A stretch of 54,913 bases of DNA from a virus, in the IMG/VR virus record IMGVR_UViG_3300045988_075804. One strand, written 5' to 3'. Shown piece after piece: positions 6,882 to 54,913 of this stretch. The notes beneath the pieces are model-generated. The model was not told the origin of the DNA. It did no database searches and saw nothing but the letters and a program-made list of their open reading frames with translations. Numbering within the stretch: the stretch's first letter is position 1; each line of letters starts with the position of its first letter. The position numbers were made by a program, and so were the translations under genes.

Positions 6882-7665
6882 ATGGAGGATTGCCGGAGAG
6901 ATTGTAGCAAGGATTCCGGAACACCACACGTACCTGGAGCCGTTCTTTGGGAGCGGAGCTGTTTTCTTCTCAAAGGAGCCGAGCAGAATTGAAATGATAA
7001 ATGACCTTGACAACAACGTACCGAACCTATTCCGTTGCATACGGGATGATCCGGACAGACTGGCCAGAATTGTTGCGACAACGCCTTATTCCAGACATGA
7101 GTATGAGAGAGCGTTTACATCGAATGAGGAGCAGGACAATTTCCAGAGAGCGGCTGACTTTCTGACTACATGCTGGCAAGGTCATGGGTTCCGGACAAAT
7201 GGGTACCGGGTGGGCTGGAAAAACGATGTACACGGTCGGGAGAGTATGTACGCTCTCCGGAACTGGTACAATCTGCCGGAGGTTATCCTGGAGACCGCAG
7301 AACGCTTGCGGTGTGTCCAGATAGACAACAGGCCGGCACTGGAAATAATAAAGAGGTTCAATTATCCGGATGTTTTCATGTACATAGGCCCTCCGTATAT
7401 CCTGGGAACCAGGACAGCAAAACAGTACAAGCATGAAATGACGGATGCAGACCATGAGGAGTTACTGGGTGTCCTGAAAAACTCAGAGGCTATGGTAATG
7501 ATAAGCGGTTATGAATCGGAACTTTACGACAGCATGTTAAAAGGCTGGCACAAGGAGCAGTTCCGGTCAAATGCTGAATACGGAGGAAACAGGGTAGAAA
7601 CTGTCTGGATGAATTACGAGAGGCAGTTTACTATAAAAGATTTTCAACAGGAAAAATTATTTTAA
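6850..7665 (+). CDS. Dam-like (D12-class) N6-adenine DNA methyltransferase
   Basis: N-terminal KYPGSKWR...EPFFGSGAVFF (AdoMet-binding motif) and GPPY in place of DPPY. Start is ATG 6850 (alternative 6826). Confidence 0.8.
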   Translation: MKPVLKYPGSKWRIAGEIVARIPEHHTYLEPFFGSGAVFFSKEPSRIEMINDLDNNVPNLFRCIRDDPDRLARIVATTPYSRHEYERAFTSNEEQDNFQRAADFLTTCWQGHGFRTNGYRVGWKNDVHGRESMYALRNWYNLPEVILETAERLRCVQIDNRPALEIIKRFNYPDVFMYIGPPYILGTRTAKQYKHEMTDADHEELLGVLKNSEAMVMISGYESELYDSMLKGWHKEQFRSNAEYGGNRVETVWMNYERQFTIKDFQQEKLF

Positions 7666-7678
7666 GGAGGATTGCAAA

Positions 7679-8326
7679 ATGGCAACTATCAAAAGAACAG
7701 AAACGAGCAATGTCACATGGAAAGAGGTTCTGGAAATCATCAATTCCGGGAAAGCGACTGAGAAGCTGAAACCAGGAACGGAGATTACGGAAACCTTAAA
7801 GGATGGCAGTAGAGCCGTAATAGCGGTGGCAGCCGTAGACTTATACCAGAACGGTGAAGTTATTTTCTGCTTCCGCAACACTGTCGGGGAAGATCACCGG
7901 ATGAACAAGGAGTGGACGAACAAAGGAGGCTGGAAAGATTGCAAAATGAGAGAATACCTGAATAGCGAAATCTTGGCTCTGCTTCCGGATGAACTGGTAG
8001 AAATGCTTTCACCTAAGAAAACTATTCAGATTCAGAATGGTTCTACTTTGGAGTGTGAGGATCTTCTTTTTCTACCGTCCGAGTACGAGGTTCATGGAGA
8101 GGAGATTTATGCAAAATACAACGGGGTAGACAAACAGTTTCCGTTCTACAAGGAGAGAACGAACCGTATTGTTGTTGATGAAGATGGAGACACAACATGG
8201 AGGTGGTTGGCATCTCCGTACGCCAGCAACACCACCTACTTCTGCGATGTCTACTTCAGCGGCAATGCCACCGACAGCATACGCATCCACCTCGTTTGGC
8301 GTGGCCCCTGGCTTCGCAATCCGTAA
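7679..8326 (+). CDS. Second (remote) DGR target protein carrying VR2. The C-terminus is frameshifted relative to TR and VR1.
   Basis: ATG after AAGGAGGATTGCAAA. The last ~125 nt align to the TR at 45408-45520. The C-terminus reads ...GNATDSIRIHLVWRGPWLRNP instead of the ...SFGVAPGF-type end. Confidence 0.75.
   Translation: MATIKRTETSNVTWKEVLEIINSGKATEKLKPGTEITETLKDGSRAVIAVAAVDLYQNGEVIFCFRNTVGEDHRMNKEWTNKGGWKDCKMREYLNSEILALLPDELVEMLSPKKTIQIQNGSTLECEDLLFLPSEYEVHGEEIYAKYNGVDKQFPFYKERTNRIVVDEDGDTTWRWLASPYASNTTYFCDVYFSGNATDSIRIHLVWRGPWLRNP
8202..8315 (+). repeat. DGR variable repeat 2 (VR2)
   Basis: 114 nt versus TR 45408-45520 (113 nt). 13 substitutions, all at TR adenines, plus one extra T near 8280. 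Confidence 0.85.
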
Positions 8327-8331
8327 ATCTT

Positions 8332-8361
8332 AAAATCCTGCCCCCTAGTGGGGCAGATTTT
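8332..8361 (+). other. GC-core hairpin downstream of VR2 (DGR target-recognition-type stem-loop)
   Basis: Core ctgcccc (8338-8344) pairs with ggggcag (8350-8356) around loop ctagt. An AAAAT/ATTTT extension flanks it. Same geometry as 44688-44722. Confidence 0.65.
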
Positions 8362-10438: not shown

Positions 10439-12184
10439 TCACGATTTGTATTTGAATTTGTGGGTCAGACCGTTCCGGAACACGATGGAGGACACACGCC
10501 CGTCCACGAGCAGCACGGAATCCAGGACGGTTTCCATGTATGCTTTCAGAATTTCCGGGGAAACGTTCTGAGCCAGGTTTTTGAAATATATGTATTGCCT
10601 GTTTTGCAGCTCCCTGGAGATTAACAGGTGGCTTGCCTGGCGGACAAATTCCTCGTCCGATAGAGAGGGTTCACTGTTTTTGGCAACCATACCCAGCATG
10701 GCGTTGATCTCCTCCAGGCGTTTTGAAATTTCCGTTTTCCGGATGATGAAATCTTTTTCCGACATAGAGGTATCAGAGTACAGATAGAGGTCCTGGAGCC
10801 TTTTCATGGCACGTTCCTGTTTTTCTTTCTCTTTCCTCAGAGTCTCCACCTCCGGGTCAACCTCAGCTTTTTTCTTCCGGGACTTCTTGACGGAAAAGGT
10901 ATAGGAATCATCAGAGCCGTACCTGGAAAGAAGATTGAAATATTCATTCAGACCGTTGCCGTCTATATGTTCAACCTCTGAAAAGGTGTTCCCGTATAGG
11001 AGACAGCGTTCCAGGTCCTCCGGATTCTCGATCGTGGAGAACCTTTTCTTTGCTCTGAGCATATTAAGAATATAGTTTATGACAAATTCCCCTACCTGAG
11101 TATCTGACACAGTTGGGTTATCACATTCTTTGGTCTTTCGGTGCTTCGGACAGCTGTAATTTGTTGGACGATAACCGTTCGCATGAAGTCTGCCGGGGGT
11201 AGAAACCATCTTGCTTCCACATTTTCCACAGTAAGCAATGCCTCCGAAAATATGCACACGTTCGGTCTGGTGTTTCTGACCTACAGACCTATGGTTGCGT
11301 GAGTTCTCGTCCAGTATGGCCAGCATTTTCTCATGTTCCTCCAGGGAAAAGATTGCCGGGTGGTGGTTCTGGATCATAATCCATTCGTCCTCCGGATTTT
11401 CGACACGCCGCTCCGTTCCTTTATACCGGTTGTAACGGTATATACCGGCATAGAAAGGACTGGAGATAATGATCCAGACAGCAGTGGGAGACCATTCGGC
11501 ACCGGCTCTTGTTTTGTAACCGGAAGCATTGAGCATCCGGGAAGTGTGTACGAGCGACTTATGCTCCATGTAGTCATTCTTTATCATTTGGCAGACCTTT
11601 TCCTCGTCCTCCCGGATGGAAAACGCTGTTTTATCCGGATCATAATCATACCCGAAAGGGATGCGGCCGCCGTTCCACAGCCCACTGTTTGCCCTGGAGA
11701 TCATAGTGGCTGTGACACGCTCAGAGGTCATGTTACGTTCAAGTTCTGCAAATACCAGGATGATTTTCAACATGGCTTCCCCAATAGCGGTCGAAGTGTC
11801 AAACTGTTCGTTCTTGCTGACAAAAGTAACCCGGAGTTCCTGCAATTCCTCGTACATTTCCGCAAAGTCCAGAAGATTTCTGGAGATACGGTCTATCTTC
11901 CAGACGAGTACATGGGTAAATTCTCCCTTGCGGATCCTCTGCATCATTTCCTGAAAAGCCGGACGGTCGGTGTTCTTTCCAGAGTAGCCGGCATCCTCGA
12001 ATATCTCGTATTCCTCTATACCTAGAATCAGGCTGGCGTATGCGATCAGGTCTTTCCTCTGCATCGGCAGAGAATCACGGTCCACCTGGTACAGCGTTGA
12101 TACCCTGATATAGATTGCTACTTTTTGCTTTCTGGAAAGTCCGGATTTGGCTTTTCCAGGTCTTTTGTTCGTTGTCCTACTCAT
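10439..12184 (-). CDS. int: Large serine recombinase (integrase)
   Basis: N-terminal resolvase motif VAIYIRVSTLYQ...DSLPMQ. Recombinase domain, Zn ribbon (CGKCGSKM...CPKHRKTKEC) and a C-terminal coiled coil. 581 aa. Confidence 0.9.
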   Translation of the reverse strand: MSRTTNKRPGKAKSGLSRKQKVAIYIRVSTLYQVDRDSLPMQRKDLIAYASLILGIEEYEIFEDAGYSGKNTDRPAFQEMMQRIRKGEFTHVLVWKIDRISRNLLDFAEMYEELQELRVTFVSKNEQFDTSTAIGEAMLKIILVFAELERNMTSERVTATMISRANSGLWNGGRIPFGYDYDPDKTAFSIREDEEKVCQMIKNDYMEHKSLVHTSRMLNASGYKTRAGAEWSPTAVWIIISSPFYAGIYRYNRYKGTERRVENPEDEWIMIQNHHPAIFSLEEHEKMLAILDENSRNHRSVGQKHQTERVHIFGGIAYCGKCGSKMVSTPGRLHANGYRPTNYSCPKHRKTKECDNPTVSDTQVGEFVINYILNMLRAKKRFSTIENPEDLERCLLYGNTFSEVEHIDGNGLNEYFNLLSRYGSDDSYTFSVKKSRKKKAEVDPEVETLRKEKEKQERAMKRLQDLYLYSDTSMSEKDFIIRKTEISKRLEEINAMLGMVAKNSEPSLSDEEFVRQASHLLISRELQNRQYIYFKNLAQNVSPEILKAYMETVLDSVLLVDGRVSSIVFRNGLTHKFKYKS

Positions 12185-12800: not shown

Positions 12801-12842
12801 ACGCACCTCCAAAAAAATAACGCACCAAAAGAAAAATTCTGC

Positions 12843-12872
12843 TTGACAGAACGCACCATAGTACGCTAAAGT
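12843..12872 (+). promoter_or_regulatory. Rightward early promoter (PR-like) TTGACA-18-TAAAGT with dyad operator CGCACCATAGTACG
   Basis: TTGACA 12843-12848, dyad 12852-12865, TAAAGT 12867-12872. Extra AACGCAC half-site-like words lie at 12819 and 12897. Confidence 0.6.
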
Positions 12873-37219: not shown

Positions 37220-40200
37220 GTGAGAACGTTGGCTTATGATGGCACACTAAAATTTGATACAAGTATTGACAGTAAAGGCTTTCAATCCGGGATAGACGGA
37301 ATAGGAAGCATAGCCGAAAAGGGCTTAAAGGCGACAGGTGCCATCCTTGCCGGAACCGCAACTGCAATAGGAGCTATCGGTGCAGCCTCAGTAAAGGTTG
37401 GCTCTGATTTCGAGGCTTCCATGTCAAAAGTAGCGGCAATCTCAGGAGCTACGGGCGATGATCTGAAAGCATTAACCGACAAGGCAAAGGAAATGGGTGC
37501 AACTACAAAGTTCAGTGCTTCCGAATCGGCGGATGCTTTGCAGTACATGGCTATGGCTGGCTGGAAAACAGAAGATATGCTGAACGGCTTAGAGGGTATT
37601 ATGAACCTGGCAGCCGCATCCGGCGAGGACTTGGCGACCACCTCAGATATTGTTACCGATGCCTTGACGGCGTTCGGGTTATCCGCAGAGGATTCCACAC
37701 ACTTTGCGGATGTATTGGCACAGGCATCCTCTAACGCAAATACTAACGTTGGAATGATGGGAGAGACGTTCAAATACGTAGCTCCGGTAGCTGGTGCTTT
37801 AGGATATACAGCGGAAGATACAGCCCTTGCAATCGGGCTTATGGCAAACTCCGGAATTAAGGCAAGCCAGGCAGGTACTTCTTTGCGTTCCATCATGTCA
37901 CGTATGGCAAAACCGACCAAAGAGGTCCAGGGAGCCATGGACAAGCTGGGAGTATCACTAACAGACAGCAACGGCAACATGAAATCACTTAATGAAGTGA
38001 TGGGAGATCTGAGAAATGGTTTCGCTGGTCTGTCAGAGGCTGAGGCGGCAGAAATGGCAGCCGCTCTTGGCGGACAAGAAGCGATGTCCGGCCTACTTGC
38101 TATTGTAAATGCTTCCGATGATGATTTTGATAAACTGTCCGATGCTATTTATTCATGTGACGGCGCAGCAAAGAGAATGGCTGACACCATGAACGACAAC
38201 CTGCAAGGTCAGATCACAATCCTAAAATCAGGATTAGAGGGGCTTGGTATCTCTCTGTATGAGAACATGGAAGCTCCGCTGAAAGAGGTTGTAAAAGAAG
38301 CCCAGAACATGGTACAGCAACTCCAGGATGCGTTTAATAACGGCGGACTGGATGAAGTTGTTTCTACGGTCGGGGATATTTTCGCCCAGATCGTAGAGAA
38401 AGCCGCATCGGCAGCCCCGGATTTGATAGACGTAGCTTCCGACATGATCCAGTCGTTCTTGACTGGCATAAATAACAATCTACCGAATATTGCTTCTGCA
38501 GGAGTAGATATAGTAACATCCCTTGGCTCAGCCCTGATTGAAAACACAGGATTACTCTGGAGTACCGGAGTAGCGTTGCTGGCTGAGGTTCTTTCCGGAT
38601 TGGCGGACAACATGCCACAGCTGGTAGAATCAGCGAAAGATGCGTTGTCGCAATTTGGTTCCGCCCTCGTAGAATACGCTCCGTCCATCGGAGAATCGGC
38701 GGCAAAAATAGTATCATACCTGGCAAGTGCGGTCATTGAAAATCTGCCTCAGCTCATCGAGGTAGGAAAGCAGATTGTCCAGGGATTTATAACAGGAATT
38801 GAACAGGAGTTCCCAGGTCTGGGAGCTTTTTTAAGTGGATTATTTGATGGTTTCGCATCCACACTGGCACCGATAGCTCAGACTGTCGTAGATGCCCTGA
38901 GTAATATTTTCTCTGCTCTTGATGGAGCAGATCCGGAAACCATGGAGGCACTTGGCAAAGCGATCGGAACTATAGCCGCATCCATAGCAGCACTGAAAGT
39001 AGCTTCTGAGGTAGTCGGAGGAGTTAAGAGCCTCATGAGCGTACTTGGTGGTTTTGGAAAAACTGCCAGAAGTATCATAGGCATAGTACCGAAAGTGGTA
39101 GAGGGATTCCAGTTATTATCCGGAGGAGCCGGAACATTCAGTGAAGTTCTTGCCCTAGAGTTCCCGAAACTCGCCGGAATCGTAACAAAGGTAACCGGTT
39201 CATTCGGTACGCTTGTAAGCGCCATATCTGGAATATTTACAAAGATAGGTGCGGTTGTAGGTCCGGCTATTTCAAAAATAGCAAGTCTGATCGCCAGCAT
39301 AGGTCCTACCATAGCCGGAATAGGAGCCGTAATTGGCGGAGCCGTCATGGCGGTAACGAACTTCTTTGGTATGCTCAAAGACGGTTTCAGCTGGGTAAAA
39401 GAAGCTCTGATGGTGATCGGAATTGCCATAGCTGCCGTAGGTGCTGTGATTCTAGGCGCACCTGCTTTGGTAGCCGCAGTCGTAGCCGGAATCGTAGCCG
39501 CAGTCGCTACCCTGGTTGTGGCAATTAAAGACCACTGGACACAAATCGTCGATTTCTTCAAGGGAATACCTGACAAAATCGGTGAGGTAGTGGATTCTAT
39601 CGTAGCCTGGTTCCAGGAACTTCCTGGGCGAATTTCAACCTGGCTGACAAATACAATAACGGCGATTACTGAGTGGGGTTCAGAACTCTACACAAATATC
39701 ACAACTTTTGTGAGCGAAGCTATATCGGCGGTCGGAGACTGGTTTTCTCAGCTGCCTTATAAAATCGGGTACGCACTCGGTACAGCCATAGGCACGATTA
39801 TCCAGTGGGGTATCAATGTAAAAGACTGGGTAACAACCGAACTTCCAAAAATCATACAAAGCGTTGTAGACTGGTTCGCCCAACTTCCAGGAAGAATCTG
39901 GACTTGGCTCGTAGGCGTGGTAAATAATATCATCGCCTGGGGTCAGAATATGTACACCACGATAACCACGGCTGCCACAAACGCCGTTAATTCGGTTATA
40001 AACTGGTTTTCACAACTTCCGGGACGTATCTGGACTTGGCTGGTAAATACCGTCAATAACGTAATTCAGTGGGGGCAGAACTTATACTCCACAATGACCA
40101 CGGCTGCCACAAATGCAATTAACAGCGTAACGAGCTGGTTCCAGCAATTACCGGGTAAAATCTGGACTTGGCTGGTAAACACGGTAACGAAAGTCGGGCA

Positions 40201-40774
40201 GTGGGCGATCGACCTGAAGAATAAAGGTGTCGAGGCGGCTCAATCCCTCGTGAACGCCGTAATTGATGGGGTTTCTTCTTTACCAGAAAAAATGAAAGAA
40301 GTCGGAGTGAACATCGTGAACGGTGTCTGGAGCGGAATTTGCAGTGCAAAGGATAAATTCGTAAGCGATGTCAAGAGTTTCTTCTCCGGAATCGTAGACG
40401 GTGTAAAGGATGCCCTGGACATCAATTCCCCGTCAAGGGTAATGAAAAAAGAGGTAGGTCGCTGGATTCCTCCTGGTGTTGGAGAGGGCATTGAGGAAGA
40501 AATGCCCGAACTGTACGACCAGACAGACGAGGAAATGGCGAAGCTGGCGGAACACATGCAGGCGGCAGTCGATGTGGAAACCGGAAAAATAACGGTTCGC
40601 TCCAAAGCTCAGGCAGAGCATACAGCTGATACCGAGATGCCGACAGGTGGAGATACCTATATTGACGAGCATATCGAGCAGGAAAATAACTACCATACAC
40701 CGGTGGCAACGCCGAGTGAGGTATCAAAGGCTCAGAGAGAAGCAGCAAGGAAATTGTTAGGAGGTGTGAAATAG
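37220..40774 (+). CDS. Tail tape measure protein
   Basis: 1184 aa. TP901-type core (ASESADALQYMAMAGW...DIVTDALTAFG), hydrophobic Gly/Ala-rich segments and tandem repeats. Confidence 0.9.
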   Translation: MRTLAYDGTLKFDTSIDSKGFQSGIDGIGSIAEKGLKATGAILAGTATAIGAIGAASVKVGSDFEASMSKVAAISGATGDDLKALTDKAKEMGATTKFSASESADALQYMAMAGWKTEDMLNGLEGIMNLAAASGEDLATTSDIVTDALTAFGLSAEDSTHFADVLAQASSNANTNVGMMGETFKYVAPVAGALGYTAEDTALAIGLMANSGIKASQAGTSLRSIMSRMAKPTKEVQGAMDKLGVSLTDSNGNMKSLNEVMGDLRNGFAGLSEAEAAEMAAALGGQEAMSGLLAIVNASDDDFDKLSDAIYSCDGAAKRMADTMNDNLQGQITILKSGLEGLGISLYENMEAPLKEVVKEAQNMVQQLQDAFNNGGLDEVVSTVGDIFAQIVEKAASAAPDLIDVASDMIQSFLTGINNNLPNIASAGVDIVTSLGSALIENTGLLWSTGVALLAEVLSGLADNMPQLVESAKDALSQFGSALVEYAPSIGESAAKIVSYLASAVIENLPQLIEVGKQIVQGFITGIEQEFPGLGAFLSGLFDGFASTLAPIAQTVVDALSNIFSALDGADPETMEALGKAIGTIAASIAALKVASEVVGGVKSLMSVLGGFGKTARSIIGIVPKVVEGFQLLSGGAGTFSEVLALEFPKLAGIVTKVTGSFGTLVSAISGIFTKIGAVVGPAISKIASLIASIGPTIAGIGAVIGGAVMAVTNFFGMLKDGFSWVKEALMVIGIAIAAVGAVILGAPALVAAVVAGIVAAVATLVVAIKDHWTQIVDFFKGIPDKIGEVVDSIVAWFQELPGRISTWLTNTITAITEWGSELYTNITTFVSEAISAVGDWFSQLPYKIGYALGTAIGTIIQWGINVKDWVTTELPKIIQSVVDWFAQLPGRIWTWLVGVVNNIIAWGQNMYTTITTAATNAVNSVINWFSQLPGRIWTWLVNTVNNVIQWGQNLYSTMTTAATNAINSVTSWFQQLPGKIWTWLVNTVTKVGQWAIDLKNKGVEAAQSLVNAVIDGVSSLPEKMKEVGVNIVNGVWSGICSAKDKFVSDVKSFFSGIVDGVKDALDINSPSRVMKKEVGRWIPPGVGEGIEEEMPELYDQTDEEMAKLAEHMQAAVDVETGKITVRSKAQAEHTADTEMPTGGDTYIDEHIEQENNYHTPVATPSEVSKAQREAARKLLGGVK
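39608..40267 (+). repeat. Five tandem 132-nt (44-aa) repeats inside the tape measure gene
   Basis: WF(S/A/Q)QLPG(R/K)IWTWLV... units start at 39608, 39740, 39872, 40004 and 40136. Confidence 0.85.
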
Positions 40775-41708: not shown

Positions 41709-42800
41709 ATGCAACTTATTGTTTTGGACAAAGATTTTGAAACCCTGGGTAGCATACCTCTTTTCCGGACATTGATCTGGGCGAGACGGTATGAAAAGCT
41801 GGGGTGTTTTGAACTTTATACGTCAAAAGATTATTTTCCACTTCTGAACGCAGGACAATATCTGTACCGGAACGATGCAAAGGAGCTGGGCGTGATTGAT
41901 GAAGTAAATTACTCCCAGGATGAAAACGGAGCCAGGGAAGCCTATGCAAAAGGCAATTTCGCAGAAAAGCTCCTGACAGACAGAGTAATAGCCGGAACAA
42001 TAACCCTAAGCGGAAACGTTGAGGAAGCCATGAGGAGGCTTGCTGATACTTCGGCTATAAATCCTACCGATGCAGACAGAAAAGTGGCTCATTTGAAGCT
42101 GGGAAGCCTCACAGGCATATCCGGGAATATCAATATGCAGGCTACCGGGGACAACGTAAGCGAGAAGCTGTATGAAATAGGCAACACAAAGGAAATTAGC
42201 CACAGGATAAGGTACGATTTCCTAACGAATGACCTCGCATTTGAGGTATGGCAAGGCGTTGACAGGAGAGATAGCCAGGAGGAAAACAGCTGGGCTATCT
42301 TTTCCAACTCTTTCTACAATATCCGGAATGTGGTTTACAACCGCAACAGCAGCTCTTACAAGAATTTCGCCTATGTTGCCGGAGCCGGGGAGGGTTCCGA
42401 CCGGATCATTATCACGGTAGATGCCAGGTTGCCCGGAGAAGAAAGAAAAGAAATCTGGGTTGATGCTAGGGATTTGCAGCAAAAGGACGAGGACGGTAAC
42501 GAGATTCCTCTGGAGACCTACAAGCAGCAACTCGACCAGAGGGGCAGAGAAAAACTGGCAGAGTACCGGATGGTAGAGACCATAAACAGTGGTGTAGATT
42601 ACCAGGCGAACCTTGTCTATAAAAAGGATTTTGACCTGGGAGACTACTGCACCTATATAAACACAGAAGTCAATATTGCAACGGATAAACGTATCACGGA
42701 GGTAATGGAGACTTACGAGGGAGCGGCTACTGAGTTGGCTGTGACCTTTGGAACTGATGAAGTATCAACAGTACAACAGCTTATCAAAAGGGAGGTGTAA
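41709..42800 (+). CDS. Siphovirus Gp37-like tail protein
   Basis: The N-terminus LIVLDKDFE.LG.I....LIW.RRY...G.FEL matches ReqiPepy6 Gp37-like proteins. Alternative GTG start at 41703. Confidence 0.55.
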   Translation: MQLIVLDKDFETLGSIPLFRTLIWARRYEKLGCFELYTSKDYFPLLNAGQYLYRNDAKELGVIDEVNYSQDENGAREAYAKGNFAEKLLTDRVIAGTITLSGNVEEAMRRLADTSAINPTDADRKVAHLKLGSLTGISGNINMQATGDNVSEKLYEIGNTKEISHRIRYDFLTNDLAFEVWQGVDRRDSQEENSWAIFSNSFYNIRNVVYNRNSSSYKNFAYVAGAGEGSDRIIITVDARLPGEERKEIWVDARDLQQKDEDGNEIPLETYKQQLDQRGREKLAEYRMVETINSGVDYQANLVYKKDFDLGDYCTYINTEVNIATDKRITEVMETYEGAATELAVTFGTDEVSTVQQLIKREV

Positions 42801-42803
42801 AGA

Positions 42804-43745
42804 GTGTCACTGAGATACGGTTATTTTGATTCTGAAATAAACGGCTATGACGAGGAGGGTATGCCTATCTTTGATAGAGCTGAATCCTCCGATTTTTTGG
42901 CGATGTTTATTTCAAAAATTATTAGCGATGGTGTCCTGGCAGATCCGGCAGACTGTTTCCAGGTAGTAGCCGGGGATGGGATGAACCTGATAGTCCGCCC
43001 TGGATTTGGCATAATTCGAGGTAGATTTGCGGCAGACACACAAGAATACACAATTACGCTTTCAAAAGCTCCTACAAGCTATAAACGCATTGACAGGGTA
43101 GTTTTGAGAGCAAACTATCTACTCAGATTGTGTGAAATCATCGTAAAAGAGGGAACACCAGATGCGAACCCGGTACCGCCGGAGCTTTTACAGCCGGCAT
43201 CCGGGGATTATTACGAGTTATGCTTGGCAACGGTTCTGATAAATTCAAACCAGACTGTTATCACACAGGCAAATATCACAGATACCAGATATGACAGTAG
43301 CGTATGCGGAGTTGTTACCCAGGTTATCGACCACCTGGACACCTCCGTATTTTTTAAGCAGTTGTATCGGTTTTATGACGAATTTGTTGACCGGTCCAAT
43401 ACCTCTTACGAGGAATTTGTTAAGCAGATGGAAGCATACCTGGCAAAACTCGAAACTTCCGGGAATAATCAGCTCCTGGACATTGTGAATCAGCTTACGG
43501 CGTTTGAAAAAAGCTCTGAAGAACAGTTCCGGGAATGGTTCGACAACGTAAAAAACCAGCTTTCAGAGGATGTTGCCGGGCATCTGCAACTCCAGCTGGA
43601 CAATCACGAGGAAAGAATCCAGCGTTTGGAGCAGATTGTAGAAAGCGGTGAAATGGAAACTGCACTTGCAACGGCAGGAGGCGAGGAGCTTGCTACCGAT
43701 GCTGGTGAAGTTATAGCTGCCTTTTGGCGGTATCAAATCATTTAA
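42804..43745 (+). CDS. Tail fibre / baseplate-associated protein
   Basis: GTG after GGAGGTGTAAAGA. Position, and a C-terminal coiled coil. Confidence 0.45.
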   Translation: MSLRYGYFDSEINGYDEEGMPIFDRAESSDFLAMFISKIISDGVLADPADCFQVVAGDGMNLIVRPGFGIIRGRFAADTQEYTITLSKAPTSYKRIDRVVLRANYLLRLCEIIVKEGTPDANPVPPELLQPASGDYYELCLATVLINSNQTVITQANITDTRYDSSVCGVVTQVIDHLDTSVFFKQLYRFYDEFVDRSNTSYEEFVKQMEAYLAKLETSGNNQLLDIVNQLTAFEKSSEEQFREWFDNVKNQLSEDVAGHLQLQLDNHEERIQRLEQIVESGEMETALATAGGEELATDAGEVIAAFWRYQII

Positions 43746-43756
43746 GGAGGTACACA

Positions 43757-44686
43757 ATGAAAAAAATCGGTGAATTACCTGCAATCACAGACGTCCCGGC
43801 CGGGAGCTTGCTGATTGTAAACACGGAAAACGGCACAAAAAAAATCACTTATGAGGATTTGTGCCAGGCGGTTAAAGCAACACTCGGCATACCTACGGTG
43901 GTGCAGAGTATCGACATCACAGAACCTGGGAATATCCCTGATGGTCCGGTTATTAAAGCGGCCTTTGATTCTGTGAATGATCTTCTTCTCGGAGCGGCTA
44001 CGTACAGTGCTGGAAAAGAGATCGAAATGTCCTGGGCGGAACTCCGGGCAAAGATCAAGACAGAGGATTTTTCCGGATTGCATATCGGGGATTATAAAGA
44101 CATCGTTCTGTCAACCGGAGAGGAAGCAAGGGTTGATCTGTCCGGATTCAATACGTACATGAATGTAGGGGATACGGCTATTCTTACAGAACCGCATCTC
44201 TATTTTACGTTCAGGGATTGCCTAAAGACTACGTATCAGATGAACTCAAGCAATACGAATACCGGAGGTACAGCGGCAGCGGCTCTTACGGCTACAGTAA
44301 ACACGACCATTTATAACACACTCCCGGCAGATCTGAGAGCTGTTATGAAAGAGGTACGCCGACTGGAAAACAATAAAGGAACCTGGGCGTGGGCTTCGAG
44401 AAAACTGTGGCTGCTCCAGGAAACAGAGGTGTTCGGAAGAAATAACTGGTCCGATGGCTATGATGGCGGAGGCATCCAGCTTCCTATTTTTGCTCACTCA
44501 TACAGACACATTGTTAAGGGACTTGGCAAAGGAGCAGCGGAGCGTGGTTCTCGTACGAACTGGTGGTTGGCATCTCCGGACGCCAGCAACACCGCCTCCT
44601 TCTGCCTTGTCAACGACAACGGCGATGCCACCAGCGCCGGCGCATCCTACTCGTTTGGCGTAGCCCCTGGCTTCATAATCTCTTAA
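43757..44686 (+). CDS. DGR target protein 1 (tail-fibre-like N-terminus, C-type-lectin-type variable C-terminus with VR1)
   Basis: ATG 43757 lies after AAGGAGGTACACA. The C-terminal 44 codons align to the TR. The protein ends ...SFGVAPGFIIS. Confidence 0.85.
   Translation: MKKIGELPAITDVPAGSLLIVNTENGTKKITYEDLCQAVKATLGIPTVVQSIDITEPGNIPDGPVIKAAFDSVNDLLLGAATYSAGKEIEMSWAELRAKIKTEDFSGLHIGDYKDIVLSTGEEARVDLSGFNTYMNVGDTAILTEPHLYFTFRDCLKTTYQMNSSNTNTGGTAAAALTATVNTTIYNTLPADLRAVMKEVRRLENNKGTWAWASRKLWLLQETEVFGRNNWSDGYDGGGIQLPIFAHSYRHIVKGLGKGAAERGSRTNWWLASPDASNTASFCLVNDNGDATSAGASYSFGVAPGFIIS
44543..44674 (+). repeat. DGR variable repeat 1 (VR1)
   Basis: 132 nt, gap-free against TR 45389-45520. 16 mismatches, all at TR adenines. 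Confidence 0.9.
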
Positions 44687-44687
44687 T

Positions 44688-44722
44688 CTTCCAATCTCGC
44701 CCCCTTGTGGGGCGGTTGGAAG
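44688..44722 (+). other. GC-core hairpin downstream of VR1 (DGR target-recognition-type stem-loop)
   Basis: Core cgcccc (44698-44703) pairs with ggggcg (44709-44714) around loop cttgt. A cttccaa/ttggaag extension flanks it. Confidence 0.65.
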
Positions 44723-44742
44723 ATGGAGGAGGAATAAAGTAA

Positions 44743-45360
44743 ATGAGCGTATTGAAAAATAATAGAGGTACGTCAGAGCTGGAATTTTACCATACAGCGA
44801 TAAAGTTACGTAAAGAGATTACCCAGAACCTATTACGGGATTTTGGTGTAAAAAATAGGGATGCAGTCAGATCAAAGAATTTCCCGGATGATGAATTGCG
44901 AGTAAAGATAGTCCAGGAGTACCCGAAAATGGAATTGTTTTTCAACAAGTACACACGGATGCAGGAAGAAATCCGCACTCGTGACGTTGTATCGGAATAT
45001 CCATACTGGCTGGTTTTCCGGTTCCGGGATGAAATGATGGATTTGCTGAAACAGCTTATTGATAATATCACGGATGCAAACAGTATTTACCCGATAAATC
45101 TGCATGAGCTGGAAGTGAGGCGAGACTATCAGACAGCAGCAATCGGAGCATGTGAAAAGATGCTCCAGGAATTACAGTATATCATCGAGGTACTGCCGAC
45201 CGATGCAAATAAACTACTCCGGTATGTGGATATGATAGACAAAGAGGTTGCCCTTTTGAAAGGATGGAGAAAGGCGAATGGTAAAATTGCTAAACGCCTG
45301 GACAAACAACAGGAGGGAAACCAAAAACAAAAACCATCAAAGTGCAAAAACCAGCCGTAA
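44743..45360 (+). CDS. avd: Accessory variability determinant (Avd-like four-helix-bundle protein) with a basic tail
   Basis: Lies between VR1 and the TR. Helical, with ...DANSIYP....E.E.RRDYQ..A...C. Lys/Gln-rich C-terminus. Confidence 0.6.
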   Translation: MSVLKNNRGTSELEFYHTAIKLRKEITQNLLRDFGVKNRDAVRSKNFPDDELRVKIVQEYPKMELFFNKYTRMQEEIRTRDVVSEYPYWLVFRFRDEMMDLLKQLIDNITDANSIYPINLHELEVRRDYQTAAIGACEKMLQELQYIIEVLPTDANKLLRYVDMIDKEVALLKGWRKANGKIAKRLDKQQEGNQKQKPSKCKNQP

Positions 45361-45388
45361 CAGGCTGTTTTTGAGGTTATTTTCTGTA

Positions 45389-45520
45389 CGTGGTTCTCGT
45401 ACGAACTGGTGGTTGGCATCTCCGAACGCCAGCAACACCACCAACTTCTGCAATGTCAACAACAACGGCAATGCCAACAACAACAACGCATCCAACTCGT
45501 TTGGCGTAGCCCCTGGATTC
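45389..45520 (+). repeat. DGR template repeat (TR)
   Basis: AAC-rich (14 AAC codons in the VR frame). Donor of both VR1 and VR2. Non-coding position between avd and the RT. Confidence 0.9.
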
Positions 45521-45778
45521 TGTGACGGCTGACTATGATTAGGTTTGTGAACCGTTCCGCTGTATCTCGGAAGGAGAAAATAACCGTCCCGAAAGGGTGA
45601 ATTTGCTCAGCTGTTCTCTTATGCCCGGAGAATGGCTCTTGCTTGATATAAGCAGTCGGACGCTGCTTGCATGGCATGAGGTCTGTGCTTATCCTCATGT
45701 TTCATGGCTGGTCTTATTACGCAGATAGAGTAAGCACACAATCTGTACAAGGAGGTTAGGGCATATTTTTAAGACAAT
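45389..45778 (+). ncRNA. DGR RNA (TR plus the 258-nt spacer preceding the RT gene)
   Basis: By analogy with BPP-1 TR-Sp RNA. No credible ORF lies in 45521-45778. Confidence 0.5.
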
Positions 45779-46936
45779 ATGACAAGTGAAGAAAGAAAAG
45801 AAGCTCGATACCAGAGGAGAAAAGCATCGAGACAGAAGAGACGTGAGGAACGGTTAAAGGAATATGACGATTTTGACCGGGTTAAGGATGCGAACAACCT
45901 CATAACTGCCTTTAAGAAATCAAAATCCGGAGTTGACTGGAAAGCATCCGTACAGCGGTATGAAATGAATCTGCTCAGGAATATCAACAACACCGTAAAG
46001 GCGTTGGAATCCGGAGAGAATGTGTCGCAAGGGTTTATTGTTTTCTGGTTGTGCGAAAGAGGAAAACTACGTCTGATAAAGAGTGTTCATATCTGGGAAA
46101 GGGTAATACAGCGTTCCCTATGCACCAATGCATTGGTTCCGGTTCTGCAGACTGGTTTAATCTACGATAACGGAGCCAGCATGGAGGGAAAAGGTATTCA
46201 TTTTGCCCTGAACAGGCTGGATGCACACTTGCACAGGTTTTACCGCCGGAATGGTTTCTCAAATGATGGCTACATACTGGTTATTGATTTTTCTAAGTAT
46301 TTCGACAACATACTGCACGAGCCTGTTTATCAGGATTTGCAGAAAAATTTCACAGACGAGCGGATCATCAACCTTGCGGCACAGTTGATCCGCCCTTTTT
46401 GTGCTGATAGGAAAGATGGCAAAGAGATTTCGCTAGGAATTGGCAGTCAAATATCACAAATCCTGGCGGTGCGTTTCCCAAATGGCATAGATCATTTTAT
46501 AGAGCAGGAGCTTGACGTACATGAACACGGCAGGTATATGGATGATTCCTACCTGATACATGAAAGCAAGGAGTATTTACAATACTGCTTAGAAGCCCTG
46601 AAAGAGAAATTTGCTGAAAAAGGTATCATAGTCAATACAAAGAAAACGCAGATCATCAAATTGTCGTCCTGGTTTACTTTTCTAAAATTCAGGTACAAAC
46701 TGACCGAGACCGGCAGAGTGGTTGTTAAGCCATGCAAAGATTCCGTTACCAGAGAACGTAGAAAGCTGCATAAGCTAAAACCTAAATTTGATAATGGAGA
46801 GCTGAACTTCGGGGATTTGAGAACGCAGTATGCTTCCTGGAGAGGGTACATAGAGTACGCCGATTCCTACCGCACAATCTGTAACATGGACAATATTTTT
46901 AATCAGCTGTATGTACCGGCTGGAGAATGGAGGTAA
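45779..46936 (+). CDS. DGR reverse transcriptase
   Basis: ERVIQRSL, LGIGSQISQ (DGR-type I/LGxxxSQ) and YMDD motifs. 385 aa. Confidence 0.9.
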   Translation: MTSEERKEARYQRRKASRQKRREERLKEYDDFDRVKDANNLITAFKKSKSGVDWKASVQRYEMNLLRNINNTVKALESGENVSQGFIVFWLCERGKLRLIKSVHIWERVIQRSLCTNALVPVLQTGLIYDNGASMEGKGIHFALNRLDAHLHRFYRRNGFSNDGYILVIDFSKYFDNILHEPVYQDLQKNFTDERIINLAAQLIRPFCADRKDGKEISLGIGSQISQILAVRFPNGIDHFIEQELDVHEHGRYMDDSYLIHESKEYLQYCLEALKEKFAEKGIIVNTKKTQIIKLSSWFTFLKFRYKLTETGRVVVKPCKDSVTRERRKLHKLKPKFDNGELNFGDLRTQYASWRGYIEYADSYRTICNMDNIFNQLYVPAGEWR

Positions 46937-46939
46937 AAA

Positions 46940-47626
46940 ATGAATCGCTTAAAATTCAAAGGCAGCGACCAGTTTTATACTGGAGAGGTAACGCCCATCG
47001 GAAGAAATAAGGTCTCCATCGAATTTGTTGGAGGCATACCGAAAGGCATTGATACCTCTTTGATTGAGGCTTTTACTCCTGGAGGGGTGAAGTTCCTGGA
47101 ATTAACAGGGTTCACAACAGAGTACAGACGAGTGGATGCAAGTCTGGTTCTCTCAAATGATGGCTCTGTTTTTGTGGGTGAAATCATCCAGGAGATCGAC
47201 CAGGAAAAAGCTCTGGAGGATGCAAAAGCATCCAAGAAAAACGAAATGTGCAGTATTTGCAACGCTACAATTATTGCCGGATGTGATGTCACGGTTTCCG
47301 GTTCCCTGGAACATTTCCGACTGACAACTGACGATCAGCTGAATTTGTTCGGAAAGCAGATCCAGCTCATGACAGGTTCTGAGAGGTTCGAGTACCACGA
47401 GGACGGTAACCCTTGCAGATACTTCTCTGCTGAGGAAATGCAGAAAATCATCACAGCCACCATGGCATATAAAACGTACCACACAACGTATTGCAATGCT
47501 CTGAATATGTGGATCAAGAACGCAGAAACCCTGGAGGAAGTAAATTCTATCTACTACGGGGTTGAAATTCCGGAAGCCTACCAGAACGAAGTCCTTAAAG
47601 ACCTCATTGTGAAGATGGGCTCATGA
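46940..47626 (+). CDS. DUF4376-like (tail-fibre-associated) protein
   Basis: ATG after GGAGGTAAAAA. The C-terminal half ...FRLTTDDQLNLFG...Y.. is DUF4376-like. Confidence 0.4.
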   Translation: MNRLKFKGSDQFYTGEVTPIGRNKVSIEFVGGIPKGIDTSLIEAFTPGGVKFLELTGFTTEYRRVDASLVLSNDGSVFVGEIIQEIDQEKALEDAKASKKNEMCSICNATIIAGCDVTVSGSLEHFRLTTDDQLNLFGKQIQLMTGSERFEYHEDGNPCRYFSAEEMQKIITATMAYKTYHTTYCNALNMWIKNAETLEEVNSIYYGVEIPEAYQNEVLKDLIVKMGS

Positions 47627-48051
47627 GGAAGCTGGTTAAATTCTTGATCTTGCTGTCGTCCGGAGGATTGATATACGTTTTGATAGAGTTTCTTTACAGA
47701 GGGAGAAGCCACTGGAGCATGTTCCTGGTAGGTGGGATATGCTTCGTTCTGATTGGAGGTCTCAATAACTGGTTCCCCTGGAACTGGTCCATCCTCCGAC
47801 AGATGGGTATATCAGCCGCCATTGTGACGGCGGTAGAATTTGTTTCTGGCATACTGCTGAACATGGTCCTGAACTTGGACGTATGGGATTACAGCAATAT
47901 GCCTTTTAATATTTACGGTCAGATATGCCTGCCGTTTACGGTGATCTGGTTCTTTCTTTCGTTCCTGGCTATTGTGGCGGATGATTTTCTCCGCTGGCTA
48001 TGGTTCGGGGAGAGATTCCCTGAATACCACCTTTTCACAAAGGAGGAGTAG
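47623..48051 (+). CDS. Multi-pass membrane protein (DUF1113 / putative ABC-transporter type IV family)
   Basis: Four hydrophobic segments. ...VWDYSNMPFN..GQICL.F...W. Confidence 0.55.
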   Translation: MRKLVKFLILLSSGGLIYVLIEFLYRGRSHWSMFLVGGICFVLIGGLNNWFPWNWSILRQMGISAAIVTAVEFVSGILLNMVLNLDVWDYSNMPFNIYGQICLPFTVIWFFLSFLAIVADDFLRWLWFGERFPEYHLFTKEE

Positions 48052-49122: not shown

Positions 49123-50619
49123 ATGACAGAAAAACAAATGTTTGATTTTCTGGTGACTGGCGGACTGTCAGAACATGGAGCGGCGGTTCTCCTGGGACAT
49201 TTCCAGGCTGAAAGCGGTCTGAACTCCAGAAACCTGCAGAACAGCTTCCAGAAAAAGCTCGGTCATACGGACGATTCGTACACAGAGGCTGTGGACAATG
49301 GAACGTATGGCAATTTTGACCGGGATGGAGCCGGCTATGGTCTGGCTCAGTGGACTTACTGGAGCAGAAAGGCGAATCTTCGTAATTTTGCAGAACAGGC
49401 AGGAAAGAGCATCGGGGATCCGGAAATGCAGCTTTCTTTCGCACTGCATGAGCTGAGCGGTTACAAGACTGTTATTCAGGCTTTGAAAACAGCAACGTCA
49501 ATCCGGGAAGCATCGGACATTGTTCTGGAGCAGTACGAGAAGCCGGCAGACCAGTCCAAGGCAGTAAAAGTAAAAAGAGCCGGGTATGGCCAGGAAATTT
49601 ACAATCGCTGTACCGGCAGAAATGAGGAGGAAAAAGAATTGAAAACGAGAAGTGAAGTAGTGAACCTGGCAAACAGCTGGTTGGGAAAGAATGAGGCAGA
49701 CGGCTCATATAAGAGTATCATCGACATTTACAACAGTTTTACCGGAAGTTTTCCGAGAGGAACCAAGATGCAGTATTCATGGCCTTGGTGTGCTTGTACA
49801 TGGTCTGCCCTGGCTATCAAGCTGGGATATACAGACATTATGCCTATCGAGATCAGCTGTTATTACCTGATCGAGAGAGCAAAAGCCATGGGTATTTGGA
49901 TTGAGCAGGATAACCGGGTACCTAAAATCGGTGAGGCTGTTCTGTATGACTGGAGCGATGGTACAGATTACGCCACCACGGACAACACAGGTACTCCGGA
50001 TCATGTCGGCGTAATCGTGGAGGTACACGAATCAGCCGGCTATTTTGTTGTTGTCGAGGGTAATTACTCCAACGCCGTGAAAAAGCGTACTCTTTCCATC
50101 AACGGCAGATATATCCGTGGCTTTATCAGTCCTAAGTATGATGCTGATGGAGGTACAGTACGGTTTCAGACACCAGGAAAGAGTGTTGAGACAGTAGCGA
50201 GAGAAGTTATTGCTGGTACCTGGGGAAATGATCCGGAACGCAGCAAGAAGCTGAAAGCAAACGGTTACGATCCTGTCGCAGTCCAGGCGAAAGTAAATGA
50301 GATTCTGAATGGCTCTGCTGTGAAGCCATCCGGAACTACTCCGGAGGAAAGTGCTACAAAATCCGTTACAGCTTCCGACTACGCCCAGAAAGGTCCGGAT
50401 TCTTCCGTGGCTGGTACCTACAAAACAACAGCTGATCTCTACATGAGACACGGAGCCGGAAAGAATAAGAAAGCCATGGTTGTGATTCCAAATGGAACAC
50501 CTGTCAGCTGTTACGGCTATTACAGCATTTCCAGAGGCGTGAAGTGGCTGTATATCCAGGTTGTTCTTGACGGGGTAAAGTACACCGGCTTCAGCTCCGG
50601 AGCATATTTGAAAAAATAA
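49123..50619 (+). CDS. Endolysin with lysozyme-like, CHAP and C-terminal SH3-like domains
   Basis: GHFQAESGLN...YGLAQWTYWSRK (phage tail lysozyme type). WPWCACTW...DHVGVIVE...GNYSN (CHAP Cys/His). C-terminal YKTTADLYMRHGAG... Confidence 0.85.
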   Translation: MTEKQMFDFLVTGGLSEHGAAVLLGHFQAESGLNSRNLQNSFQKKLGHTDDSYTEAVDNGTYGNFDRDGAGYGLAQWTYWSRKANLRNFAEQAGKSIGDPEMQLSFALHELSGYKTVIQALKTATSIREASDIVLEQYEKPADQSKAVKVKRAGYGQEIYNRCTGRNEEEKELKTRSEVVNLANSWLGKNEADGSYKSIIDIYNSFTGSFPRGTKMQYSWPWCACTWSALAIKLGYTDIMPIEISCYYLIERAKAMGIWIEQDNRVPKIGEAVLYDWSDGTDYATTDNTGTPDHVGVIVEVHESAGYFVVVEGNYSNAVKKRTLSINGRYIRGFISPKYDADGGTVRFQTPGKSVETVAREVIAGTWGNDPERSKKLKANGYDPVAVQAKVNEILNGSAVKPSGTTPEESATKSVTASDYAQKGPDSSVAGTYKTTADLYMRHGAGKNKKAMVVIPNGTPVSCYGYYSISRGVKWLYIQVVLDGVKYTGFSSGAYLKK

Positions 50620-50758: not shown

Positions 50759-51459
50759 TTGTTAGAGAGCAGTAAAATGTAACATGTAAATGAAAGTCAT
50801 GTAAACCACCTGTGGTTACTGGCAAAGCAAGGAAAAACATATCACGAATCACGAGCAGGAACCGGGCTGTAAGCTATATCATCTGTTATAACATTTGTTA
50901 TAGCATTACACCCGGAAGTCCTGTTTTTCTATACCATTTCTGTTGAACAAAGTTTCTGAAAAGAGCAATATCAAAAATGCACAAATCGGTAAGTTGCCGT
51001 TTGGGTAAAATTTCAAATCGGTGCGAAAACAATTTCTTTGATATAATTATCATCCGTGGCTTAAAAGGCAAATTCAGGCATTTTAGGCACTGTCTCGCAG
51101 GTTGTCATTTTCGTGGGTTCACGAAAAAGGTCGGCAACTGTCACAATGCACAATCCCAGGTTTTCAAAATGTAATATATGCACAATGCAAGAAAAAACGT
51201 CACTGTGTACGTCACTTGTGAAGTTTCAAGTAAAATTTCCCGTTGAAATTTATCAGCAAAACCATACGCAAAAATCACAAAAAAAGAATTACTTCCTATT
51301 TATATTAAATTGTAAAAAAACATATACAGTTTCATATACCGTATATGCTACATAAACCGTCACAATATAAAAAAGAAAATAGAATTTATAATATTTATAA
51401 AAATATACTTCCAAAATTCACAGAAACGTCACTGTTACATATACAAAAAAACTTTATCA

Positions 51460-51555
51460 AAAAAATGAAAAAATAGGCTTGACACAACGCACCATAGTAC
51501 GCTAAAGTCTAAGCATAGAAACACACCAAAGGAAAACAAACACACGAAACGGAGG
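51460..51555 (+). repeat. 96-nt promoter-plus-leader cassette, copy 2
   Basis: 92 of 96 positions are identical to 2488-2583. Confidence 0.9.
51479..51508 (+). promoter_or_regulatory. Early promoter TTGACA-18-TAAAGT with dyad CGCACCATAGTACG
   Basis: TTGACA 51479-51484, dyad 51488-51501, TAAAGT 51503-51508. Confidence 0.6.
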
Positions 51556-54498: not shown

Positions 54499-54913
54499 AT
54501 GAAAGAAAGACACGCACAAATTTTGGAAGCTATTAAGAGCTTCTACCAGGAGAACGGTTTCTGTCCGACTATCCGCCAGATCGGGGATATGGTAGGGCTG
54601 AAATCCACGTCAACCGCGATAACGCACCTGAAAGCGATGGAGAAAGCCGGTCTGATTATCCGGAACGAATTTTCGCCACGTTCAATCATAATTCCGGGTT
54701 TTAATGACAGAAAACCCGAAAATGATAACGTTTTCGGTAAAATTGAAACGGAAAACACCGGTTTTGAACCGGTTTTCGTACTGCATGGATTCTGGATTAC
54801 CGGCGATGATGCTGGAGTGGATGTCTTTGCAGTCTCTCCGGATCCTGAATATCTCCGGGAGAGAATGAGAGAGGAAGCGGAGGAGCTGTTGGCTGGGTTC
54901 CAAAACAGCGGCA
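54499..54913 (+). CDS. 5' part of a LexA-N-terminal (winged-helix) DNA-binding protein without an S24 peptidase domain. It continues at position 120 through the junction (191 aa in total).
   Basis: ATG after AAAGGAGCAGCAC. MKERHAQILEAIKSFYQENGFCPTIRQIGDMVGLKSTSTAITHLKAMEKAGLI mirrors LexA residues 1-65. Confidence 0.75.
   Translation, partial: MKERHAQILEAIKSFYQENGFCPTIRQIGDMVGLKSTSTAITHLKAMEKAGLIIRNEFSPRSIIIPGFNDRKPENDNVFGKIETENTGFEPVFVLHGFWITGDDAGVDVFAVSPDPEYLRERMREEAEELLAGFQNSG
54795..54913. repeat. Terminal overlap, identical to 1-119
   Basis: See feature 1-119. Confidence 0.95.

Follow-up and report, generated by a model that had tools for sequence, protein, structure and literature searches.

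In the diversity-generating retroelement (DGR) of phage BPP-1, the target gene (encoding Mtd), avd, the template repeat (TR) and the reverse transcriptase (RT) gene follow one another on one strand, and the target gene, which lies in the tail region and encodes a lectin fold, carries the variable repeat (VR) at its 3' end. Residues R74 and I181 of the BPP-1 RT (bRT), the second of which opens the signature [I/V/L]GxxxSQ, were shown experimentally to promote adenine mutagenesis (PMC7826257). In the cryo-electron microscopy structure of the RT-Avd-RNA complex, A56 of the spacer (Sp) primes synthesis and is followed by 2 nt and then by the strand of a duplex, and conservation of this Stop duplex across DGRs has been described (bioRxiv 10.1101/2023.10.23.563531). 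Remote targets served in trans (PMC5758913) and two-target DGRs with DUF6273 proteins in phages of gut Firmicutes (PMC10743442, PMC11792537) have likewise been published. Here we analyzed the IMG/VR virus record IMGVR_UViG_3300045988_075804, a stretch of 54,913 nt (hereafter the window), in which an earlier note, made from the letters alone, had identified a complete DGR with the BPP-1 order of target, avd, TR and RT between positions 43757 and 46936. Every defining component of that identification was tested and found, and the locus is very probably a functional, phage-encoded DGR of BPP-1 architecture that serves a second, remote target in addition to the adjacent one. It belongs to the DGR family and works like that of BPP-1, with the same gene order and strand, and all the defining features that can be tested in silico are present.

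The evidence that carries this identification is the relationship between the TR and VR1, the variable repeat that ends target gene 1 (Table 1). The two repeats align without a gap over 132 nt and differ at 16 positions, all of which are adenines in the TR (8 A>G, 5 A>C and 3 A>T); by the hypergeometric distribution, 16 mismatches placed at random would all fall on adenines with a probability of 4.6e-11. This formal re-alignment reproduced the repeat coordinates and both translations given in the earlier note exactly, found zero mismatches at other bases, as had been claimed, and the three open reading frames (ORFs) of the cassette were present as described there. VR1 starts at a codon boundary of target 1, and the TR translated in this frame reads RGSRTNWWLASPNASNTTNFCNVNNNGNANNNNASNSFGVAPGF, with 12 AAC and 2 AAT codons, a richness in AAC that it shares with the BPP-1 TR along with the adenine-only mutagenesis. 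Because the TR adenines lie at codon positions 1 or 2 (32 of 36), the AAY codons cannot yield stop codons; the theoretical repertoire, estimated from the TR codons, is ~7e18 peptides. A degenerate scan of both strands of the whole window returned exactly three copies, namely TR, VR1 and a remote VR2, against 0 expected by chance, and no third VR.

The 3' ends of the repeats are equally characteristic. A45517 is the only fixed difference between TR and VR, being C in all eight in-frame VR alleles tabulated as well as in the window's VR2. Since this base is fixed to C and the TR/VR homology ends 3 nt past it, A45517 marks the 3' boundary of information transfer. The asymmetry between the initiation of mutagenic homing (IMH) site and its TR counterpart (IMH*) and a GC-rich inverted repeat 3' of the VR are both present; such a repeat downstream of the IMH is a described DGR feature (PMC5758913), and a GC hairpin also follows the VR of BPP-1. 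The hairpin behind VR1 has the core CGCCCC-CTTGT-GGGGCG (44698-44714) and the outer arms TTCCAA/TTGGAA. The hairpins after VR1 and VR2 each begin exactly 23 nt past the end of the VR, and the difference between their stems is compensated. From this placement, they are candidates for a role in target recognition or homing.

The RT of the cassette was compared with solved structures and family models. Its best solved-structure match is bRT of BPP-1 (8ub7, E 1.3e-18), with group II intron RTs behind (E 4e-7), although the identity to bRT is low, as an E-value of only 1e-18 indicates. In this alignment, IGSQISQ falls on IGSLTSQ of bRT (I181), KLRLI on KPRLI (R74) and YMDD on YMDD, so the equivalents of R74 and I181 are conserved. 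The motifs LGIGSQISQ and YMDD that had been noted in this ORF are indeed there, within SLGIGSQISQ and RYMDDS, which places the protein with the DGR clade and leaves its catalytic motifs intact. One could object that TR and VR are an ordinary duplicated fragment under normal mutation that happens to lie beside an unrelated retron or group II intron RT, and NCBIfam models of group II intron, retron and Drt RTs do give sub-threshold matches. These scores are all far below the cut-offs (e.g. 78 vs 300 bits), and we rejected the three identities; the best solved-structure relative is bRT, the protein has IGxxxSQ rather than QGxxxSP, and an Rfam search gave the RT-2 RNA only and no intron RNA family. 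The adenine-only mismatch pattern (p about 5e-11) already refutes this explanation, to which we assign a vanishingly small probability.

We then examined close relatives of the cassette for signs of activity. IMG/VR holds four contigs with a 99%-identical RT, two of which span the whole cassette. The related loci L002/L019 and L004/L017 match the window at 98.2-98.6% identity over 9-13 kb and share its TR unchanged, while their VR1 shows 13 and 17 mismatches to the TR, respectively, every one at a TR adenine. Between L004 and the window there are 16 differences in VR1, each at a TR-adenine site, and 0 in the TR. The TR of L003/L021 carries one change, at a non-adenine position (G to A). A pattern scan of related contigs yielded five VR2 alleles, all in frame, no two alike and with 10-17 differences from the TR, again all at adenines. 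Besides the window's own VR1 and VR2, eight in-frame VR alleles from relatives have 0 non-adenine differences. At the protein level, target 1 belongs to a 90%-identity cluster of 2,075 member sequences, from which 13 full-length (309-aa) members were compared together with the window's own protein. All 14 carry different VRs, in which single TR N codons show up to nine residues, whereas the remaining 262 residues show no more than 11 columns with two alleles. Divergent loci with an RT ~47% identical have adenine-biased TR/VR pairs of their own and keep the order target, avd-like gene, TR, RT in 10 of 11 cases. The VR heterogeneity that the earlier note anticipated in phage populations is found among these related contigs, at adenine sites and with a constant TR. 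The comparison is indirect but strong evidence that mutagenic retrohoming is ongoing at both targets.

Several observations count against an active element. Two substitutions among the 14 VR1 protein alleles (W270R and S299T) fall on non-adenine codons, which either ordinary mutation or rare misincorporation at bases other than A could explain. Since its VR2 is frameshifted, the window may carry one defective target out of two, and retrohoming in this particular genome is read from sequence comparison of relatives rather than from cDNA or a direct assay. Together with clusters of single-nucleotide polymorphisms (SNPs) against L004 that show recombination in the region (41779-42528 and 46529-47778), the last two points would fit an intact-looking but inactive relic whose VR differences stem from past activity or from recombination between phages. 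However, the ORFs and catalytic motifs are all intact, the TR is identical in most relatives, and each VR allele examined is distinct and adenine-only among genomes that are 98-99% identical. The cluster of target 1 alone holds 2,075 distinct sequences, and adenine-restricted differences cannot come from recombination alone. We therefore consider an inactive relic very improbable and retain the reading of a functional DGR.

Table 1. Positions of the DGR components, predicted RNA elements and neighboring genes, counted from the first letter of the window.
Feature	Position	Strand	Remarks
Target gene 1	43757-44686	+	309 aa; AGGAGG ahead of the ORF
VR1, variable repeat	44543-44674	+	Recipient of mutagenized cDNA; last 44 codons of the DUF6273 domain of target 1
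GC-rich inverted repeat 3' of VR1	44689-44721	+	Candidate target-recognition hairpin
Accessory gene, long Avd homologue	44743-45360	+	205 aa; isoelectric point 9.2 (basic)
Upstream arm of the TR-bracketing RNA duplex, GGUUAUUUUCU	45375-45385	+	Predicted analogue of the BPP-1 avd:Sp 'cPRT Stop' duplex
TR, invariant template repeat	45389-45520	+	36 adenines
Predicted template strand, UUCUGUGACG	45518-45527	+	A45517, just 5', is the predicted first templated base
Structured spacer RNA between TR and RT	45550-45775	+	Rfam RF03077 (RT-2 RNA)
Predicted primer strand, UAUCUCGGAA	45563-45572	+	A45572 is the predicted cis-priming adenosine, by positional analogy with BPP-1
Predicted cPRT-Stop-like element	45575-45601	+	Downstream arm 45575-45585, hairpin CCC-GAAA-GGG 45588-45597, unpaired adenosines 45600-45601
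DGR reverse transcriptase	45779-46936	+	385 aa; Pfam RVT_1, E 1e-16; PHROG 1423, E 2e-73
Target gene 2, small stand-alone DUF6273 protein	7679-8326	+	Early region; Pfam DUF6273, E 1e-13
VR2, remote variable repeat	8202-8315	+	
GC hairpin 3' of VR2	8339-8355	+	TGCCCC-CTAGT-GGGGCA
D12-class N6-adenine DNA methyltransferase	6826-7665		Directly upstream of target 2
Large serine recombinase	10439-12184	minus	
Tape measure gene	37220-40774		
DUF4376 / PHROG 1348 'tail fiber protein' ORF	46940-47626		Starts 4 nt past the RT stop

Target 1 matches Pfam DUF6273 over residues 181-308 (E 7e-12), whereas the target of BPP-1 is Mtd. DUF6273 has been reported to be C-lectin-like, with the VR on a surface hairpin (PMC10743442). 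The AlphaFold2 (AF2) model of the protein has a predicted local distance difference test (pLDDT) score of 79, with mostly >88 in the C-terminal domain and low confidence in the N-terminal ~80 residues. In Foldseek it best matches the N-terminal DUF6273 domain of an IgA peptidase from T. ramosa (9qa6, E 2e-4), followed more weakly by the C-terminal domain of Legionella Lcl and then by classical C-type lectins. The earlier note had expected a C-type lectin fold here, and the model indeed predicts a lectin-like DUF6273 fold with C-type lectins among its matches; the VR lies, as in other DGRs, at the end of a target with a fold that tolerates variation.

Judged from gene position and modeled fold, target 1 is probably a receptor-binding protein of the tail. 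The gene directly follows those for the tape measure, Dit, a Gp37-like protein and a virion structural protein (42804-43745) and precedes the tail-fiber-like DUF4376 ORF. Its counterpart in Roseburia phage Shimadzu combines a Phage_tail_fib N-terminus with DUF6273. Among homologues, the last ~240 residues are kept and the N-terminus differs (coverage 70-78%), as would be expected of an exchangeable tail adaptor. On the other side, the tail location has the support of gene order only, and one PHROG match, a weak one (E 1e-4), is to a Hoc-like head decoration family. An active DGR could instead diversify an accessory adhesin, that is, a decoration or a mucus- or glycan-binding protein, and so tune binding to something besides the entry receptor, a role of the kind put forward for other DUF6273 targets. 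A bacterial IgA peptidase, too, has DUF6273 as its N-terminal domain, target 2 sits among early rather than structural genes, and the published two-target DUF6273 phages leave the function open, with bacterial receptors or intestinal or immune cells as suggested ligands (PMC10743442; PMC11792537). In view of the gene neighborhood, the Shimadzu fusion and the exchangeable N-terminus, we regard an accessory adhesin as rather unlikely and favor a receptor-binding protein of the tail. Membership of target 1 in the tentaclins was considered and rejected: no Ig or Fn3 Pfam domain was found, the VRs are C-terminal, and the model shows a single C-terminal globular domain.

The second VR that the earlier note had placed at 8.2 kb is real. 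VR2 differs from the TR by 13 substitutions, all 13 at TR adenines (chance 1.5e-8), and among them A45508 is changed to G, a site that is unchanged in eight other VR alleles tabulated. VR2 also contains a 1-nt insertion near 8279-8281, which is missing from the TR and from each of the five related VR2 alleles and shifts the end of the target 2 ORF. The insertion, seen in this genome only, causes a +1 frameshift in the last 15 codons and replaces the conserved C-terminus SFGVAPGF(A/I/V)IRKS by IRIHLVWRGPWLRNP. An intact target 2 of 217 aa is present in all four relatives that contain the whole gene, including L020, whose flanks are 99.4% identical. The frameshift may have arisen when a hypervariable region was misassembled, or it may be real, a defective product of retrohoming. 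A second, remote target distinguishes this DGR from that of BPP-1. As the genome is circular (see below), VR2 and the TR are ~17.6 kb apart across the junction, compared with 37 kb on the linear map.

The ORF between target 1 and the TR had been assigned to Avd by its position. Avd proper is a four-helix bundle of ~110-130 aa that forms a pentameric barrel binding the RT. The protein encoded here matches PHROG 3206, 'Avd protein of DGR' (E 1e-6), and a profile of its family built from 39 sequences aligned in hhalign to the annotated Avd of Shimadzu (136 aa) with 98.2% probability (E 4.6e-14); the motifs NI..AN.IY and LKGWRK are common to both. Its AF2 model (pLDDT 72, core >85) contains four long helices, and the top-probability Foldseek matches are PF05635-type bundles, 2gsc and 2rld (probability 0.97-0.99, target template modeling score 0.65-0.77). 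We note that other searches speak against this assignment. The Foldseek E-values for these two structures are not significant (0.7 or worse), no Pfam family matches at E 0.01 or better, and the 39-sequence profile finds nothing among PDB sequences at E 10 or better; the single sequence gave nothing meaningful against PDB and only noise in NCBIfam. PHROG, profile alignment and fold resemblance together indicate an Avd homologue, so the positional assignment holds, but for a 205-aa variant that fails the Pfam search.

This variant belongs to a large family. More than 620 homologues were found, and only one of 120 listed carries a Pfam domain (PF13728). The family alignment shows a conserved N-terminal helix, a variable insert of ~50 aa (~residues 36-85), of which Treponema members have almost nothing, and a core of three conserved helices; the BPP-1 protein, by contrast, has 128 aa. 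In 10 of the 11 divergent loci L005-L015, an Avd-like gene lies between target and RT, with no match in L013. An Avd-type accessory gene adjoining the TR, as is usual in DGRs, is thus present in the window, and Pfam-based annotation misses the long subfamily to which it belongs.

The spacer between TR and RT matches the Rfam RT-2 RNA over the entire model (positions 1-222 of 222) with 96.9 bits, compared with a gathering score of 40 (E 3e-23). RT-2 comes from a set of 19 RT-associated motifs, in which it was given no function (Weinberg et al. 2017; PMC5737381). Among these motifs, only RT-10 was tied to a DGR, that of BPP-1, whereas the occurrence of others in DGRs was merely speculated (PMC5737381); in the searchable literature we found no paper linking RT-2 to DGRs. 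RT-2 occurs at the same place in Shimadzu (144.9 bits) and in locus L024 from a Lachnospiraceae metagenome-assembled genome (MAG; 94.5 bits). It was not found at the gathering score in L005-L015 or L025-L037, which have an RT ~47% identical and the same cassette, and RT-2 is therefore not universal in this RT clade. The spacer RNA of these loci appears to be a different and possibly undescribed family.

We next asked how the spacer compares with the BPP-1 RNA in its pairing. An upstream segment (45375-45385) and a spacer segment (45575-45585) form 11 Watson-Crick pairs that bracket the TR, with arms 3 nt before and 54 nt after it. In Shimadzu, the duplex is kept by compensation (GGGUUAUUUGCU/AGCAAAUAACCC). 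Of 95 non-redundant IMG/VR loci with the RT-2 core GGACGCTGCTTGCATGGC, 28 can form a duplex of 12 bp or more between the corresponding windows, compared with 7 of 475 shuffles. Arm pairs of 10 bp or more come in 30 distinct versions among these loci, with as many as four to six pair types at the central positions, and in loci with a GGTT-type duplex the arms lie mostly 3-15 nt before and 50-59 nt after the TR. When 10 loci were folded, most showed a short stem-loop a few nt past the arm, its sequence varying between loci, and an A-rich stretch behind it; this corresponds to the stem-loop and A-minor adenosines of BPP-1. Over 45550-45590, the first helix of the RT-2 model is partly non-canonical here, and its segment 45575-45585 is the one that pairs perfectly with 45375-45385, outside the model; the Rfam RT-2 structure may, on this pairing, lack a long-range helix.

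The spacer also contains a candidate for the primer strand. Positions 45563-45572 form 8 standard or wobble pairs with 45518-45527 at the 3' edge of the TR, with 2 mismatches. In 17 RT-2-class loci, the two partners covary: matched strands make 4.65 of 6 pairs at variable positions compared with 3.10 for swapped strands, and 0 of 20,000 permutations reach the matched value, the TR-side register having been optimized per locus. A45572 is followed by GG and then by the arm at 45575, and 'AA' then 'GG' precede the arm in 18 of the 19 loci listed. The predicted first template base, A45517, coincides with the fixed TR/VR difference. The cis-priming geometry of BPP-1 is reproduced in the order 45563-45572, GG, 45575-45585, 45588-45597 and A45600-45601, with the reservation that the arms were partly chosen by complementarity. 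The predicted template:primer duplex, bracketing Stop duplex, hairpin and adenosines follow one another as in BPP-1, whose spacer RNA is, in contrast, RT-10 (PMC5737381).

Other results argue against this structural reading. The duplex arms were located partly by complementarity, which inflates the pairing statistics. The global minimum free energy fold of the TR-spacer region (45361-45790) is no more stable than that of shuffles (z = 0.77), so that overall folding energy gives no support for structure. When the spacer was scanned naively with RNAduplex for pairing to the 3' end of the TR, no position was consistent across three loci and the template:primer duplex was missed; it came to light only by positional analogy with BPP-1. 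Unrestricted duplex folding of the upstream against the downstream flanks was tried and discarded as too permissive to inform. Given the complementarity-found arms, the per-locus register, the unremarkable folding energy and the failed naive scans, A45572 as the priming nucleotide and the Stop function of the duplex are predictions drawn from the analogy with BPP-1. Directly before the upstream arm, at 45352-45367, a terminator-like hairpin CAGCCGTAACAGGCTG followed by TTTTT lies over the stop codon of avd, where it might set the 5' end of the DGR RNA or attenuate it.

Based on these features, we propose the following working model. A transcript comprising the avd end, the TR and the RT-2 spacer would fold such that 45375-45385 pairs with 45575-45585 and the TR is looped out, while spacer positions 45563-45572 would pair with 45518-45527 at the TR 3' edge. 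The RT, aided by the Avd-like protein, would prime cDNA from A45572, copy toward the 5' end of the TR, misincorporate only opposite adenines while doing so, and stop at the bracketing duplex. The cDNA would then replace VR1 in target 1 and act in trans on VR2 in target 2, guided by the shared GC-rich 3' end of the repeat and by the GC hairpin that begins 23 nt past the VR. In this way, as many as 14 AAC/AAT codons and 4 other adenine-containing codons could be recoded on the lectin-like DUF6273 surface.

In a broader joint reading, which we hold to be moderately probable, a large DGR lineage, carried by phages of Lachnospiraceae and related gut bacteria, would have RT-2 as its cis-priming spacer RNA. 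The functional 5' helix of RT-2 would not lie inside the motif, where the model places it; its partner would be a segment upstream of the TR, which would give a BPP-1-like Stop duplex and a specific priming adenosine, predicted to be A45572 in the window. This lineage would also rely on a distinct subfamily of long Avd proteins (>620 members of about 160-205 aa, almost none with a Pfam annotation), and the +1 frameshift of VR2 would be a genuine retrohoming error and not an assembly artifact.

Among named phages, Roseburia phage Shimadzu (LR596903.1) is the closest. Its RT is 47.9% identical, and it shares the order of tail fiber (with DUF6273 C-terminus), Avd, TR, RT-2 RNA and RT, as well as the bracketing duplex. 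It differs in having a myovirus-type baseplate (Baseplate J, P2_I), the shorter Avd and a target with a Phage_tail_fib N-terminus, and it has no nucleotide similarity to the window. The cassette gave no match to INPHARED phages by blastn in distant mode, and Shimadzu, nd12, nd4 and the Faecalibacterium phages came up only in a protein-level search. The two-target DUF6273 phages nd4/nd12 and the Faecalibacterium phages Lelie, CP11, Roos and Pioen have RTs only 30-35% identical to that of the window, and the tentaclin target of nd4/nd12 consists of an N-terminal lectin domain followed by Ig domains, whereas both VRs here are C-terminal.

Against this background, the locus is a textbook DGR, one more well-documented, complete and apparently active example in a temperate gut phage. 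What it adds is modestly new: RT-2 is placed as the spacer RNA of a seemingly active DGR together with a specific prediction of the priming site, a long Avd subfamily missed by Pfam is described, and a frameshifted VR2 allele is reported. A motif without assigned function thereby finds a place in what appears to be a working DGR, with testable coordinates for the predicted priming adenosine and Stop duplex, and the BPP-1 ribonucleoprotein model would extend to phages of Gram-positive gut bacteria. The invariant TR and the many VR1 and VR2 alleles form a natural data set for how one TR serves an adjacent and a remote target, and the frameshifted allele bears on how often retrohoming damages its own targets.

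The window ends in a perfect direct repeat of 119 nt (1-119 = 54795-54913) and thus represents a circularly closed genome of 54,794 bp. The large serine recombinase that it encodes indicates a temperate lifestyle. RT relatives in isolate genomes and MAGs are almost all from Lachnospiraceae or allied Clostridia (Blautia, Waltera, Hungatella, Lachnobacterium, Clostridium), including one at 77% identity from a Lachnospiraceae MAG. Based on these relatives and on the closest named phage, the host of this temperate gut phage is probably a member of the Lachnospiraceae and hence, in a further difference from BPP-1, probably Gram-positive.

The earlier note had described the cassette as appended to the tail-fiber module. 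This needs correction: tail genes precede it, but the RT is followed by the DUF4376 ORF and, beyond that, by membrane proteins and an endolysin (49123-50619), so that the cassette is embedded between tail and lysis genes. The DUF4376 ORF has no counterpart at the same position in the divergent cassettes L005-L015 and is for this reason probably a tail gene rather than a DGR component. Compared with L004 (98.5% identical), SNPs are concentrated in two places, the Gp37-like gene and a stretch running from the C-terminus of the RT into the DUF4376 ORF, which suggests mosaic recombination around the cassette. The tape measure gene contains diverged repeats at 39607-40187 with a period of 132 nt and an identity of 60-75%. 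Finally, a 46-nt element with TTGACA occurs in three copies of 87-100% identity (2491-2536, 12827-12872 and 51463-51508), two of which sit inside a 109-nt repeat (2475-2583 / 51447-51555); it may be a repeated promoter or operator of regulatory regions.

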